Origin: Faecalibaculum rodentium
GTDB taxonomy: Bacteria > Bacillota_I > Bacilli_A > Erysipelotrichales > Erysipelotrichaceae
Assembly (NCBI RefSeq): GCF_001564455.1
Contig: NZ_CP011391.1
Coordinates: 570,001 to 602,000 of the forward strand
DNA: 32,000 nucleotides
Direction of reading: 5' to 3'
Part shown: positions 10,103 through 14,503 of the stretch, in pieces
Layout of the letters: each line of letters opens with the position of its first letter
Position numbering within the stretch: the first letter of the stretch is position 1
Notes under the pieces: model-generated
Seen by the model: the letters and a program-made list of their open reading frames with translations, nothing else
Told to the model about the DNA's origin: nothing
The model's database searches: none
Made by a program: the position numbers and the translations under genes

Positions 10103-10260
10103 AGTGTTCTCCTTACCGCTTTGTGCGGTCCTCACTTTTTACGAGACCGCAGACAGATGAGCCGTCAATGACGCGGTTAGCGTGCATTTAATCATTGACG
10201 GCTCAGCAGCTGTCTGCGGTTTATAAGATCCATGAAAGTCATAAATACCATAAAAAGCGG
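10103..10260 (-). promoter_or_regulatory. Hairpin-leader module copy 1 (hairpin 10146-10220; TTGACG 10195-10200; CATAAA-type array 10221-10258)
   Basis: Arm accgcagacagatgagccgtcaatga pairs with arm tcattgacggctcagcagctgtctgcggt. The sense leader is TAAAAAGTGAGGACCGCACAAAGCGGTAAGGAGaacactATG. Confidence 0.75.
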
Positions 10261-10301
10261 ACTCAAAAATGGGACATTATATCATGCCCCATTTCTATGA
10301 A

Positions 10302-10580
10302 TTAACAATTAATTTTTGCCGCACGGAATATATAGTACAGTACCCACGGCGCAAATATATATTCAATATCCTCAATGTTTCTGAAGGTTTGGACATCAAA
10401 TTTTCCCTTTTCGGGATTCCATATCCGAAGATTATCATCATTGCAGAGAGCGGGAACAACTGTCATTAGAAATACTATCATCTGCCGGTCGGATAATTGT
10501 TCTGGGTCTAATTCATTTGAAGCACAGATAGCTTCGTAGTCTTTCTGATGAGTGGCAGTAATAAATTGTAGCTGATCCAT
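10302..10580 (-). CDS. Small acidic hypothetical protein (92 aa)
   Basis: ORF lies 31 nt downstream of the preceding gene with its own RBS. It has 14 D/E versus 8 K/R. No family recognised. Confidence 0.5.
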   Translation of the reverse strand: MDQLQFITATHQKDYEAICASNELDPEQLSDRQMIVFLMTVVPALCNDDNLRIWNPEKGKFDVQTFRNIEDIEYIFAPWVLYYIFRAAKINC

Positions 10581-10610
10581 TTTGCATTCTCCTACAGTAA
10601 TGATAGTTAA

Positions 10611-10955
10611 TTAGATAGCCGGCGTCACTATGGCTTCCAATATCGGTATCCAAAATGGGTACTCACTGACTGATCCAGCGATTTCAATAGCTTGAGTATC
10701 ATGCTCATTATCCAAATACGAAGAAACTTTCAGATACTGGTCTAGGTTTATCTCATGTCCAAGGATTTCTTCTACAGACATCCAGTTATCGGCATCATAG
10801 CCGTTTGGAATAAAATTCGCGTCCCGTTCTAGGATAAATAGTTTTGTCAGCCAGGGGGTATCGGGATCATAGTTCTCCCAATCTAGAATTCCTACAGCTT
10901 TCAGGATAGCAATCATCTCGTCCCGAGAGAAAACAAGTACATTGGTTTGATTCAT
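10611..10955 (-). CDS. Small strongly acidic hypothetical protein (114 aa, about 20 D/E vs 5 K/R)
   Basis: ATG 10955 follows the RBS ataaggagag of module copy 2. Composition was counted by hand. Confidence 0.55.
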   Translation of the reverse strand: MNQTNVLVFSRDEMIAILKAVGILDWENYDPDTPWLTKLFILERDANFIPNGYDADNWMSVEEILGHEINLDQYLKVSSYLDNEHDTQAIEIAGSVSEYPFWIPILEAIVTPAI

Positions 10956-11128
10956 CAGTAACTCTCCTTATCGTCCTTACGCGGACTTCACTTTTTCCAC
11001 GGCTGCAGCCCTCAATCCAGTCAACGGCGCGAAGCGTTCAGTTTACCGTTGACCGATCTGAGGTGGGCGGCGATAGAAGACCCTAAGATTCATAAAAACC
11101 ATAGGCTTCATATCAGCCATAAAAAGGC
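10956..11128 (-). promoter_or_regulatory. Hairpin-leader module copy 2 (hairpin about 11001-11072; TTGACC 11049-11054; apical GCGAAGC)
   Basis: It shares a 33-nt identical apical core (11020-11052) with copy 5. The sense leader is GAAAAAGTGAAGTCCGCGTAAGGACGATAAGGAGagttactgATG. Confidence 0.7.
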
Positions 11129-11132
11129 TATA

Positions 11133-11160
11133 ACAAACAAAAGCGGGGTGACCCGCTTTT
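11133..11160 (-). terminator. Rho-independent terminator after the 198-aa ORF
   Basis: aagcggg-gtga-cccgctt stem. Minus-strand tail is ttttgtttgt. Confidence 0.7.
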
Positions 11161-11167
11161 GTAATGG

Positions 11168-12273: not shown

Positions 12274-12296
12274 TTGAGTACCTCCTGCCGCTTTAC

Positions 12297-12605
12297 TTAG
12301 CTCACTATATCCATCCGCTCTACGACAAATGCGTATTGAGGACGTTCAGAAGATCCGTCTTTGCTCATTCTGGCAGCTATACGTCCAGTAGCGTTAATGC
12401 ATGTTCCAGGAACGACCATAGATGCTGTATCCGCCAAGCCACGCCATGTTTCCAGAAATAAGAGGTCGCTCTCGTAAATCCCTTGGGCATTTGCGTAGGG
12501 ACGCTTTACAGCTACCTTAACCACACATTGCTTAATTCCGTTAGGTTGGACGATGCATTCAGGCTTCGATGCCACAGTCCCCGATATACAAAATACGTTT
12601 AACAT
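12297..12605 (-). CDS. Tail-less SSB-like OB-fold protein, paralog A (102 aa)
   Basis: It has the same length and pattern as paralog B, and its N-terminal 11 aa are nearly identical to B. Confidence 0.55.
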   Translation of the reverse strand: MLNVFCISGTVASKPECIVQPNGIKQCVVKVAVKRPYANAQGIYESDLLFLETWRGLADTASMVVPGTCINATGRIAARMSKDGSSERPQYAFVVERMDIVS

Positions 12606-12760
12606 TTGATTTCCTCCTGCCGCTTTGTGCGGTCTTCACTTTCTTTCAGACCGCAGGCAGATGCTCCGTCAATGGCGCCATTGGCGTGCACTTTACCATT
12701 GACGGCAAAGCAGTTGCCTGCGGTTGATAGAAATCATGAGAAACATAAAATTCATAAAAT
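12606..12760 (-). promoter_or_regulatory. Hairpin-leader module copy 4 (hairpin 12650-12724; TTGACG 12699-12704)
   Basis: Arm accgcaggcagatgctccgtcaatgg pairs with arm ccattgacggcaaagcagttgcctgcggt. The sense leader is AAGAAAGTGAAGACCGCACAAAGCGGCAGGAGGaaatcaaATG. Confidence 0.75.
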
Positions 12761-12770
12761 CGTGCGTAAT

Positions 12771-12796
12771 TAAAAAGGATGGCATCTCTGCCACCC
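12771..12796 (-). terminator. Rho-independent terminator after the PD-(D/E)XK-like gene
   Basis: ggatggca-tctc-tgccaccc stem. Minus-strand tail is ttttta. Confidence 0.55.
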
Positions 12797-12802
12797 TAAG
12801 GA

Positions 12803-13753
12803 TCACCTGTTTTTCTTTTTCGAATAATCTTCGAATACTTCCGGATGATTCTTCTTGACCCACTCTAGCTGAGACTTGTATTCGTCGCGCTCAGTCATCA
12901 TCTCATCGTATTCGCGCTTCATTTTTGGATCGAGCCACACAACCTGCGCATCATTATATTCATCAAGTCTAGATCTAGTTTGTGCTGTCATTTTTACACC
13001 TTCTCTTTCCAAATAATCAATCTGTCTTTCTGGGTCAACTGAGTCTCGGAAGATATGGCCAAGACATTGGATTGCTTCCTCGGATGATTCTGACCAGTTC
13101 ACGCCAACGGCAGCAATCTTTATTCGGACAAAATCATTCAGAGATTGGCAGAGTTTTTCTCCCGCTCCTCTTTCATTATCATTATAAAGCATTTGTGCCA
13201 CCGTCTTGCAGTCAATGACGAAACTATGGTCCATATGTGGCATGATCCAAATTGCGCAAACTGGCTTAATGTCTTTGTACTCATCATCCTTGAAGCCACT
13301 GACATCGTTTTTCTGCGATTTGAACATTTCCCCAATGTAGTAAAAGATTCTTCCCGCTAACGACCGGGAACCTGGATTTGAGTTCTGCACTTCCACATCT
13401 ACGAAAAGAACATCTGGATCCGCTGTTTCGCATACATAGAGAAGTAAGGCATCAAAACTCATATCACCCTTTTCAATCTCGGTCATCTGATCCCGCAGTT
13501 TATGACAGTGACCTCTGCTGGTACCATTCAAAGACTTTCTGAATTTGGCGGCAATATCTTCCAGGTCTCCTGAAAATATCTCAGGCATCGTTTTTTTCAG
13601 AATTAAGGCACACAGAATCGGGAGAGAAAGAATCTCTTTTGCTGCCTTATCATATCTGGCTCTAGCTTCTTTTGGAGAAATAACAGCTTTTGCTTCAGAA
13701 CTCTTCATTTCAGAATCCCAACAGTTCATTTTTTTTACTTTCCAGTTCGGCAA
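12803..13753 (-). CDS. PD-(D/E)XK-type nuclease-like protein (Rpn / PDDEXK_2 transposase-like architecture)
   Basis: SFDALLLYVC...VLFVDVEVQNSNP...AGRIFYYIGEMFKSQ...YKDIKPVCAIWIM parallels the D...(I/V)E(M/V)Q...R..YY...Y..l.PV..I layout of that family. The start is ambiguous (13753 or 13729). It overlaps the upstream ORF. Confidence 0.5.
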   Translation of the reverse strand: MPNWKVKKMNCWDSEMKSSEAKAVISPKEARARYDKAAKEILSLPILCALILKKTMPEIFSGDLEDIAAKFRKSLNGTSRGHCHKLRDQMTEIEKGDMSFDALLLYVCETADPDVLFVDVEVQNSNPGSRSLAGRIFYYIGEMFKSQKNDVSGFKDDEYKDIKPVCAIWIMPHMDHSFVIDCKTVAQMLYNDNERGAGEKLCQSLNDFVRIKIAAVGVNWSESSEEAIQCLGHIFRDSVDPERQIDYLEREGVKMTAQTRSRLDEYNDAQVVWLDPKMKREYDEMMTERDEYKSQLEWVKKNHPEVFEDYSKKKNR

Positions 13754-14357
13754 GTTTATCTTCCGCTCTTGCGTCTATTTGTTTTAGTCTCTCCTGCAGT
13801 CTGACGAGCATCTTATAATATTCCATTTTGTAACATTCCATTTCGCCTAGGAGCATATTGACTACTTCCTGCTGACCTACGTAAATGCATTTAAGTAAAA
13901 GTTCATTTTTTTTGCTTTCCAGTTCGGCAAGTTTATCTTCCACTCTTGCGTCTATTTGTTTTAGTCTCTCCTGCAGTCTGGCGGGCATCTTACAATATTC
14001 CGTTTTGTAACATTCCATTTCGCCTAGAAGTATATTGACTACTTCCTGCTGACCTACGTAAAAGCATTCAAGCAAATGGATTTCATCTAATCTGGCCATA
14101 TCCGAATCTCTTTTTTCCTGGGTCTCAGAATCATCTTCATAGTTATCGTCTTCATCTTTTAAAGTCGTTTGTCGCTCAAAACAGCGGACGGCATCGTACA
14201 GAGTTGTAAAATATATCCCCCCCATATGCCATATTCTTTTTTCGGGATTATAGTCTTTAGCCACAACATACCTTTCAGGAGCACCTTCAGGACGTTGCAA
14301 TAATGCAATCTTGTAGCCCAGTTTTCCTTCGCGGATTTCAATAATCTCAAATGTCAT
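13710..14357 (-). CDS. Hypothetical protein with small N-terminal domain and duplicated 59-aa coiled-coil/Cys-containing repeat
   Basis: Start set at ATG 14357 (aaggaggaattgattATG, MTFEIIEIREGKLGY...). The C-terminal half is two near-identical 59-aa units. Confidence 0.55.
   Translation of the reverse strand: MTFEIIEIREGKLGYKIALLQRPEGAPERYVVAKDYNPEKRIWHMGGIYFTTLYDAVRCFERQTTLKDEDDNYEDDSETQEKRDSDMARLDEIHLLECFYVGQQEVVNILLGEMECYKTEYCKMPARLQERLKQIDARVEDKLAELESKKNELLLKCIYVGQQEVVNMLLGEMECYKMEYYKMLVRLQERLKQIDARAEDKLAELESKKNELLGF
13723..14076 (-). repeat. Perfect-phase tandem repeat, 2 x 177 bp, inside the 13710-14357 CDS
   Basis: gttcatttttttt(a/g)ctttccagttcggcaagtttatcttcc... recurs at 13723 and 13900. 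The protein units are (L/K)C(F/I)YVGQQEVVN(I/M)LLGEMECYK.EY.KM..RLQERLKQIDAR.EDKLAELESKKNELL. Confidence 0.85.
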
Positions 14358-14503
14358 AATCAATTCCTCCTTACCGTTATTTGTGCGGTCCTCACTTTCT
14401 CCAAGACCTAGCACCCCAGCTGTGTCAACGGCGCGAAGCGTTCAGTTTACCGTTGATACAGTTGGATGCTAGGTAGCATAAAAAACATAAGAACCCTATG
14501 AGG
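14358..14503 (-). promoter_or_regulatory. Hairpin-leader module copy 5 (hairpin 14407-14473; TTGATA 14453-14458; apical GCGAAGC; CATAAA 14477-14482)
   Basis: The 33-nt apical core 14424-14456 is identical to copy 2. The sense leader is GAGAAAGTGAGGACCGCACAAATAACGGTAAGGAGGaattgattATG. Confidence 0.7.

Follow-up and report, generated by a model that had tools for sequence, protein, structure and literature searches.

Hairpin modules preceding the gene cassettes of an integrated Faecalibaculum rodentium element are candidate single-stranded-DNA promoters

How can the gene cassettes of a mobile element be transcribed if the DNA in front of them offers a good -35 hexamer and no -10 element at a workable distance? 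The question is raised by a 32,000-nucleotide (nt) stretch of Faecalibaculum rodentium (contig NZ_CP011391.1, positions 570,001 to 602,000, forward strand; called the window in the following), where five repeated modules stand directly upstream of minus-strand cassettes and share a TTGACN hexamer, a distance of 21 nt, an A-rich box, and a GTGARG motif. A sequence-only reading of the window had remarked on this geometry and proposed a promoter that is competent only when extruded or single-stranded, or else recognition by a factor other than sigma-A. Following up these proposals, we hold with moderate confidence that the five modules are single-stranded-DNA (ssDNA) promoters, Frpo-like without being Frpo homologues, in the leading region of an Erysipelotrichaceae-type integrative conjugative or mobilisable element.

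Anatomy of the modules and search for a duplex promoter

A search of the window with the pattern TTGACN-21 nt-(N)RRAAA-GTGARG gives exactly five matches, every one on the minus strand, which the search string TTGACN(22)NRRAAAGTGARG places as listed in Table 1. None of 100 shuffles yields a match, and none is expected by chance. The pattern is real and beyond chance, and the spacer of 21 nt between TTGAC and the A-rich box in all five copies, the hexamers, the boxes, and the copy-to-copy differences within the spacer agree with what the sequence-only reading had listed. Equal spacing within the window is weak evidence by itself, because the five copies are paralogous repeats; judged from the sequences, homologues in related elements are the stronger evidence for a length constraint.

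Each of the five sites sits in a module of roughly 150-190 nt. Read on the minus (coding) strand, a module starts with a terminator-like hairpin and T-run that closes the preceding cassette, followed by two to four TTTATG-like repeats spaced 7-10 nt and an imperfect hairpin of about 75 nt. A linker of 4 nt leads on to the A-rich box and GTGARG, after which come a small hairpin (ACCGC-ACAAA-GCGG), the ribosome-binding site (RBS) AAGGAGG, and the ATG. All five modules are flanked in this way by a terminator-like hairpin on one side and an RBS with an ATG about 35 nt downstream on the other. Along the large hairpin, an outer stem leads across an internal loop into an inner stem that closes with GTCAAYGR; about nine unpaired loop nucleotides, a mini-hairpin of 3-4 base pairs (bp), and the returning arm YCRTTGACN come next, and TTGAC adjoins the loop. 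When folded as single-stranded DNA, copies 1, 3, and 4 are strong on both strands (z about -5 to -6) and copies 2 and 5 are weaker; across the modules the z-scores run from -5 to -8, with the best reaching -8.

Module 2 combines two modules that stand intact and next to each other in the metagenome contig Ga0137310_100351 (L027:1940-2083 and L027:2751-2891), being equal to one of them in its 5' half and to the next in its 3' half. Modules 2 and 5 share 33 identical nt in the inner-hairpin core, and the junction of module 2 falls inside this core. The window has therefore lost one cassette through recombination within the shared inner-hairpin core, and the poor pairing of the outer stem of module 2 follows from its recombinant origin.

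As duplex DNA, the modules hold no recognisable promoter. A sigma-70-type scan of the gene strand detects none at any of the five modules, and pairs of -35 and -10 hexamers 16-18 bp apart are likewise absent from all of them, the distance from TTGAC to the A-rich box being 21 bp. The sequence-only reading was thus right that the modules are not sigma-A-type promoters in duplex form. A conventional promoter built on the sense-strand TATGNT of the repeats was also considered and rejected, as no -35 or TG motif lies at the right distance.

Two further observations concern the surroundings of the modules. On the plus strand, at 10115-10140, 11776-11801, and 12619-12644, the small hairpin of the 5' untranslated region (UTR) followed by CCTCACTTTTT is flagged as terminator-like, and these signals could halt antisense transcription or be incidental. 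Extra TTTATG-type repeats (TATTTATGTATTTTATGGTCTTTGATTGTCTTTATG) are found at 9340-9375 (minus strand) after the terminator of the DUF2786 gene, with no recognisable long hairpin or TTGAC and a weak match to the covariance model described below (E 0.32); they may be a decayed module beside the origin of transfer (oriT).

Conservation and covariation in related elements

A covariance model was built from the five copies of the window and searched in related Erysipelotrichaceae elements. Homologues of the 489-residue Rep protein, which is encoded next to the module array, were found in Faecalibaculum, Dubosiella, other Erysipelotrichaceae, and mouse-gut metagenomes. Modules occur on the gene strand of those elements whose Rep is 51-56% identical. 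Erysipelotrichaceae bacterium OPF54 has them too, and so do two metagenome contigs, the two contigs being variants of the element of the window. From related elements of other samples, the model recovered 18 distinct modules of the kind seen in the window, which we call type A.

In all 18 type-A modules, TTGACN is followed by 17 nt that reach down to the stem base, then by 4 nt, RRRAAA, and RTGRRG, with no indel in this arm, while the opposite arm measures 17 or 20 nt and tolerates indels of 3 nt. The length constraint is thus genuine and retained in homologues. The 21 nt that had been described as one spacer are correct as a total, but they are composed of a 17-nt stem arm and a 4-nt linker. 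Pairing is kept in 86.9% of the cells of the type-A stem alignment (n=18 modules), compared with 68.9% in shuffles and 27-46% in controls with a slid partner, and compensatory changes are seen in 23 of the 32 stem pairs. TTGAC is invariant although the neighbouring positions covary, and (G/A)TG is invariant as well.

A second, more distant module type, type B, is carried by Faecalibaculum-type elements. Its repeats read CTTATTG, a small hairpin and an RBS belong to it, and GAAGAAAT(C/T)AG is invariant; the main hairpin contains CCCTTGCA or CTTGACC. This main hairpin has the same three-part build as in type A, with compensatory changes in all five outer-stem pairs, but the distance from TTGNNN to AAGAAA is 20-24 nt and GTG is absent. 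Variable spacing in homologues, which the sequence-only reading had named as a refuting result, is therefore not seen in type A. In type B the spacing does vary, and the figure of 21 nt is specific to type A. A sigma-54 interpretation of type B (TGGCAG-CCC-TTGCA) was rejected, the spacing from GG to GC being 2 nt short and the motif missing in most copies.

The window additionally contains a mini-module, which has the TTTATG repeats, the linker CTCG, and linker plus AAGAAAGTGAGG as in the full modules, and an 8-bp hairpin in place of the long stem; here TTGCAC is placed 17 nt ahead of AAGAAA. Mini-modules are conserved after the relaxase gene in relatives (L004, L005, L006, L025, and L030), which keep the repeats, a hairpin of 6-8 bp, the linker, and AAGAAAGTGAG. 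Both flanks at the stem base are conserved irrespective of stem length, mini-modules included. Judged from these alignments, the universal rule across the module classes is the stem base followed by 4 nt and the A-rich box.

Beyond these elements, a first pattern for the genome collection was too strict and gave no matches, and a relaxed pattern retrieved only one genome (again OPF54) and two metagenome contigs, so that the module family appears to be rare or the search pattern too narrow. A blastn search of one module against 72,556 plasmids (PLSDB, with F included) gave no match, and Rfam at gathering thresholds gave none in the module region, with permissive scans at chance level except for RF01691, which is discussed below. 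A pairing of the upstream repeat with AGTGAG, suggested by RNAalifold, was dropped as it relies on G-U pairs.

In type A and type B as well as in mini-modules, each strand has a flank box about 4 nt off the base of the stem. Most modules, read on the template strand, have a NATAAR box (CATAAA, TATAAG, AATAAA, or TATAAA) that begins 3-4 nt past the stem base and, in the fold, faces the A-rich (AAGAAA) box with partial pairing. NATAAR resembles TATAAT at a mean of 4.0 of 6 positions, compared with 3.1 of 6 for the duplex box, and carries an invariant T where the duplex box carries a G. The RRAAA box, which the sequence-only reading had treated as a poor -10, is probably not the -10 element, since a folded template strand would make it the template-side partner of NATAAR on the other flank.

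Watson-Crick stems are equally stable on both strands, and a strand difference in fold stability therefore comes from mismatches. With a neutral tetraloop in place of the loop, the template (plus) strand is the more stable one in 16 of 19 clusters (85% identity), by a mean of -1.0 kcal/mol (sign test p ~0.004), and with native loops in 17 of 20, values from paralogous, non-independent sequences that are to be read as indicative and not as strict probabilities. Mismatches on the sense strand comprise 20 A.C and 8 G.T. The asymmetry is indicative of template-strand folding.

Proposed single-stranded-DNA promoters and competing explanations

If the modules are ssDNA promoters, the plus strand, the template strand of every gene concerned, would enter the recipient single-stranded during conjugation, a choice of strand that we infer. 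Each module would then fold into its hairpin of about 75 nt, with the gene-proximal arm acting as the template and the other arm as the non-template strand. The duplex adjoining the loop would offer the -35 element, with TTGAC on the template-complement side and TTGAY on the non-template arm, and the stem would stop exactly 17 nt past the -35 at an unpaired linker of 4x4 nt. Past the linker, the non-template flank would supply NATAAR (CATAAA, TATAAG, TATAAA) as the -10, opposite the AAGAAA complement and partly paired with it. Host sigma-A RNA polymerase could bind this pre-opened mimic and initiate in or just after GTGARG, producing an mRNA with a 5'-terminal stabilising hairpin and a strong RBS; the small 5'-proximal hairpin and the RBS fit an mRNA 5' end at this position. 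The usual distance of 13-14 nt from the fork, measured on the template, would end at the G/A of GTGARG, and such counting would explain why the length of template arm and linker is fixed while the other arm may bulge. Second-strand synthesis would turn the modules into the duplex TTGACN-21 bp-AAGAAA, which would be silent, and expression would for this reason be early and transient. These transcripts could also act as primers for the complementary strand, a role that has been described for Frpo.

Competence in the single-stranded form only, as proposed before, is the best-supported reading, given the covarying hairpin, the TTGAC in the stem, the position between terminator and RBS, the F-like layout, and the template-strand asymmetry, with its details in need of the corrections given above. 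Several points weigh against it. The weakest one of the promoter model is the non-canonical -10: the fold rebuilds no canonical -10 at 17±1 nt, and NATAAR lies at least 20-21 nt from the -35, outside the continuous stem and beyond the unpaired 4-nt linker, with no T at -7. The mini-modules have no -35 duplex, and the conserved loop nucleotides and the two to four tandem TTTATG repeats are left unexplained. Apart from the paralogous origin of the strand-asymmetry figures, the motifs of the candidate oriT fit nicking of either strand, the gene for a RepB'-like primase adjoins the module array, and the weak Rfam similarity to a single-strand origin (sso) is in sense orientation. The literature searched holds no demonstrated ssDNA promoter in Gram-positive bacteria.

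The main competing explanation, which we regard as unlikely, is that the modules are single-strand initiation sites for the RepB'-like primase of the element and serve complementary-strand synthesis, with no role in transcription. The hairpin would join conserved 5' and 3' tails, Rep would perhaps be anchored by its helix-turn-helix (HTH) domain on the TTGAC duplex, and the distance to the primer start would be constant, with the T of (G/A)TG as one possible start. The neighbouring 489-residue protein indeed models as an archaeo-eukaryotic primase (AEP) related to S-2L PrimPol and RSF1010 RepB' with a LuxR/GerE-type HTH and has PHROG primase matches, and RepB' recognises 40-nt hairpins, binds a 6-nt 5' tail, and initiates at T32, which belongs to a GTG located 3' of the hairpin (PMC8567376). 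The invariant (G/A)TG of type A and the conservation of the stem-base flanks whatever the stem length, even in mini-modules, would suit such a site. However, type B lacks GTG, Rep homologues of 33-36% identity occur in module-less elements, and a hairpin behind the rep gene, present in all Rep loci, is the likelier cognate site. Priming alone also leaves the cassettes without a promoter and the terminator, RBS, and 5'-UTR hairpin setting of every module unexplained, whereas the exact -35 consensus and the 17-nt arm suggest RNA polymerase; the use of the GTG strand as template needs folding of the coding strand, contrary to the strand asymmetry. By analogy with Frpo, a dual role in promotion and priming is possible, and the factor other than sigma-A that the sequence-only reading had suggested could be Rep. 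The same strand asymmetry and the same promoterless cassettes speak against the idea, which we consider quite improbable, that the modules are RNA-polymerase-dependent coding-strand origins like ssoA or ssoT, used only to prime the second strand after transfer or rolling-circle replication. This idea draws on a match of the module 2 inner hairpin to RF01691 in sense orientation (21.1 bits with a gathering score of 31, E 0.2-0.6, hence sub-threshold), which rests on GTCAACGGTAA...GTTGAC, on an RF01691 seed with members at the ICEBs1 site that precedes ydcS and at the sso coordinates of pTA1060 and pTA1040, functional single-strand origins (PMC4595007), and on the CS-6 sequence TAGCGT in the loop of module 1 on the plus strand. 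Only module 2 reaches even this score, CS-6 is exact in module 1 alone and on the strand opposite to the RF01691-like orientation, and five or six RBS-linked copies are unlike the sso pattern. The RSB motif (TTATGCCGAGAAAATTT) is absent even at three mismatches (RSB and CS-6 motif sequences from PMC4598088), so that an ssoA identity was rejected, and the modules belong to neither the RF01691 nor the ssoA family.

Two explanations do without a single-stranded template. The modules could be duplex control regions in which a dedicated factor, such as an HTH or ribbon-helix-helix (RHH) protein of the element bound to the inverted repeat or the TTTATG repeats, activates or represses a non-canonical promoter with a 21-bp spacer, the hairpin being a by-product of a palindromic operator. 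Tandem repeats of 9-10 nt and inverted repeats do look like operator arrays, Rep has a LuxR/GerE-type HTH, and in p576 the establishment genes are controlled through dual TTATCCC motifs bound by an RHH repressor (PMC6294495). Against this, the outer-stem positions covary freely with pairing kept, which is the signature of a fold and unlike an operator read by a protein; bulges are tolerated in the arms, the duplex has no -10 at a workable distance, and in the duplex 60-100 bp separate the repeats from TTGAC downstream of them, whereas in the folded module, and only there, they adjoin the start region. We therefore consider duplex control improbable. Very improbable, in our view, is a structured RNA leader or an attC-like site for cassette recombination, for which the position of the modules in the 5' regions of genes, the varying cassette content among related elements, and the recombinant module 2 might be cited. 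A leader would need an upstream promoter to transcribe the hairpin, of which there is none, and a terminator precedes each module; the sense-strand mismatches are A.C and not G.U, no Rfam family matches, and the invariance of TTGAC is unexplained. No integron-type integrase is found among the genes and open reading frames inspected in the window, and homologous recombination suffices for module 2 because its junction lies in the 33-nt core exactly shared with module 5.

The surrounding element and comparison with known systems

The window has 41-47% G+C from position 1 to about 16.9 kb and about 56% beyond, and every gene in the low-G+C segment is encoded by the minus strand. The gene order runs from Rep through the five module cassettes, non-coding oriT-like repeats, a NikA/MobC-like gene, and a MOBP-like relaxase gene to ParB, ParA, SSB, and surface proteins (Table 1). 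The segment is an integrated conjugative or mobilisable element, and its boundary with the host lies at about 16300-16950, where G+C jumps from 0.47 to 0.59 just past rep. The host flank (20743-21094; 23684-23784; 27068-28947) includes PBP1A and a group II intron, together with RNase P class B RNA and a TPP riboswitch, which mark the host as a member of the Bacillota.

Searches of Pfam, NCBIfam, and PHROG recognise only the two tandem SSB-like proteins and the DUF2786/DUF7168 protein among the cassette products, the others having no known family. The two SSB-like paralogues, of 102 residues each and about 70% identical in DNA, span 11965-12605 (minus strand) and would be driven by module 4, and a third SSB gene at 4062-4502 encodes 146 residues. 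In the 215-residue cassette gene, a tandem duplication of 177 nt with 93% identity (13720-14073, minus strand) encodes two coiled-coil-like repeats of 59 residues.

Table 1. Positions in the window of the modules, their cassettes, and associated features of the element
Feature	Positions	Strand	Details
Module 1	10100..10258	-	search-string match 10130-10168; repeats 10258-10221; hairpin 10220-10146; TTGACG 10168-10163; linker CTCG 10145-10142; box TAAAAA 10141-10136; GTGAGG 10135-10130; small hairpin 10129-10115; RBS 10114-10109; ATG 10102; cassette: DUF2786/DUF7168 gene 9440-10102
Module 2	10953..11100	-	search-string match 10986-11024; hairpin ~11074-11002, weakly paired; TTGACT 11024-11019; box GAAAAA 10997-10992; GTGAAG 10991-10986; ATG 10955; cassette: 114-aa and 92-aa genes
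Module 3	11759..11912	-	search-string match 11791-11829; hairpin 11881-11807; TTGACG 11829-11824; box GAAAAA 11802-11797; GTGAGG 11796-11791; small hairpin 11790-11776; ATG 11761; cassette: 197-aa gene
Module 4	12603..12760	-	search-string match 12634-12672; hairpin 12724-12650, stem lengthened by flank pairing; TTGACG 12672-12667; box AAGAAA 12645-12640; GTGAAG 12639-12634; small hairpin 12633-12619; ATG 12605; cassette: tandem SSB-like genes 12297-12605 and 11965-12273
Module 5	14355..14492	-	search-string match 14390-14428; hairpin 14474-14406; TTGACA 14428-14423; box GAGAAA 14401-14396; GTGAGG 14395-14390; ATG 14357; cassette: 215-aa and 301-aa genes
Mini-module	6586..6645	-	between relaxase and 100-aa/ParB genes; hairpin GCACAGC-AAA-GCTGTGC 6618-6602; AAGAAA 6597-6592; GTGAGG 6591-6586
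Relaxase gene, MOBP-like	6897..8471	-	TraI/MobA(P) and SAG1250 family models, both under cut-offs
NikA/MobC-like relaxosome accessory gene	8476..8934	-	
Candidate oriT	9090..9190	-	upstream of NikA/MobC-like gene; GCAAGCAAGGG block, three TGTATCCACA repeats, hairpin GGGGTGTTACCCC
Hairpin directly 3' of rep stop codon	14515..14551	-	conserved; GGAAATTTTTTGTCACATCAATGGTATCTATGTCCGG
Rep gene, 489 aa	14557..16026	-	N-terminal AEP primase-polymerase fold, helical bundle, C-terminal LuxR/GerE-type HTH

In the candidate oriT, the GCAAGCAAGGG block is invariant in five related elements and is accompanied by a covarying hairpin GGGG(T/C)...(A/G)CCCC followed by GA(T/G)CCCC.

The sequence-only reading had described the adjacent Rep as primase-like with a sigma-region-4-like HTH. 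The structure model (predicted local distance difference test, pLDDT, 88.9) agrees with an AEP primase fold, with the cyanophage S-2L PrimPol (E 5e-7) and RSF1010 RepB' (E 9e-7) as the best PDB matches and RepB' as the closest likeness, and structure comparison assigns the C-terminal HTH to the LuxR/GerE type. Rep also matches PHROG families of replication proteins and DNA primases. The hairpin behind the rep stop codon is found in all Rep-encoding loci, module-less ones included (L012 ~2527, L016 ~6981, L008 ~11470, L022 ~11600), and consists of an A/T run followed by GTCACA-N2-AATGGTATCT-GTGT. This conservation suggests that it is probably Rep's own site and may be its origin or priming site. 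The loop of this hairpin, CAATGGTAT, is similar to TCAATGGTAAA at the module junction and to the motif GTCAACGGTA of RF01691.

The closest parallel is found in the Frpo/ssi elements (F Frpo1 and Frpo2, ColIb-P9 ssi, and pESBL classes 1-3), which like the modules are non-coding hairpin repeats upstream of several leading-region operons, SSB genes included. On F and pESBL, several leading-region operons each have their own ssDNA promoter, in which a -35 and a -10 are rebuilt in the stem, with early and transient expression and with mapped starts for six pESBL operons (PMC9849209, PMC12672017). The leading genes of the F plasmid (ssb, psiB, and others) face oriT and are co-oriented with traM and traJ, a layout shared by the window, where the genes face the candidate oriT in the orientation of the transfer genes; the relaxase gene is typically the last to be transferred (PMC11541004). 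Both kinds of element have a -35 within the stem and no usable promoter in the duplex, and both kinds of repeat are recombination substrates that delete intervening genes (PMC9849209). The differences are considerable. There is no sequence similarity in the blastn search of PLSDB with F included, and the F Frpo2 hairpin measures about 330 nt compared with about 75 nt for a module. The module -35 abuts the loop, with the stem ending 17 nt later, and the -10-like box comes from a repeated flank across a 4x4 loop and lacks the T at -7, whereas the Frpo -10 is inside a continuous stem. The hosts are Enterobacteria in one case and Bacillota in the other.

The RSF1010 sites ssiA and ssiB recognised by RepB' offer a partial parallel as single-stranded hairpins with sequence-specific 5' and 3' tails, a fixed distance from stem to start, a triplet with central T (GTG), and a related AEP primase encoded alongside (PMC8567376). 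They differ in being 40 nt long, present once per strand inside oriV, and not linked to genes, whereas five to six co-oriented modules front an RBS and carry the -35 consensus; GTG is at +4 to +6 from the stem in ssi and at +11 to +13 in the modules, and is absent in type B. The Gram-positive sso elements of rolling-circle plasmids and ICEBs1 (ssoA; ssoT/sso1 = RF01691) resemble the modules as orientation-specific single-stranded hairpins in Firmicutes, and RF01691 shares the core GTCAAYGG-TA...TTGAC with them, but the Rfam match is sub-threshold, RSB is missing, and copy number and gene coupling differ. The RF01691 seed sequences NC_000964.2/535441-535494, NC_001766.1/6354-6409, and NC_001764.1/5114-5169 coincide with the first stem-loop of the pTA1060, pTA1040, and ICEBs1 sso1 origins. 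Because the seed coincides with experimentally defined single-strand origins, the "Bacillus-plasmid RNA" motif RF01691 is probably an ssDNA element and not an RNA.

Among Gram-positive conjugative elements, EGeRS1 of pLS20 and EGeRS2 of p576 are also repeated conserved non-coding sequences directly upstream of the RBSs of establishment operons. EGeRS1 shares with the modules the lack of a duplex promoter and a high degree of structure, but it is 420-750 bp long with many stem-loops and an unknown mechanism, whereas EGeRS2 has a strong duplex promoter with an RHH repressor; neither is related to the modules in sequence. Gram-positive systems examined to date rely on different mechanisms or on unknown ones (PMC8708921, PMC6294495), and a similarity-based survey of a Streptococcus island detected nothing Frpo-like (PMC11541004).

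The modules are best described as having Frpo-like logic and layout with unrelated sequence, a much smaller size, a different construction of the -10, and a place in a bacterial group without described promoters of such kind. Tentatively, we propose that they represent a compact, undescribed class of Gram-positive ssDNA promoters, in which a hairpin of about 75 nt would give a -35 duplex with a 17-bp spacer and the tandemly repeated NATAAR flank at the 4x4 junction would give the -10. Early expression from the incoming single strand has so far been demonstrated only for IncF and IncI1 plasmids, and the timing of establishment genes in Gram-positive elements is largely open (PMC8708921). If the proposal holds, the family would be the first of its kind outside Proteobacteria: anti-defence and establishment cassettes would be transcribed, and perhaps primed, off the incoming strand and turned off by second-strand synthesis, and RNA polymerase and the RepB'-like primase might both read the modules. 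The conserved geometry makes the promoter question addressable with short oligonucleotides, and the modules would offer a minimal natural design to study sigma-A polymerase on fork-like templates as well as a small part for transient, transfer-coupled expression. The covariance model, together with the rule of stem base plus 4 nt, would then be a searchable signature for leading regions and unannotated anti-defence cassettes in integrative and conjugative elements of Bacillota.

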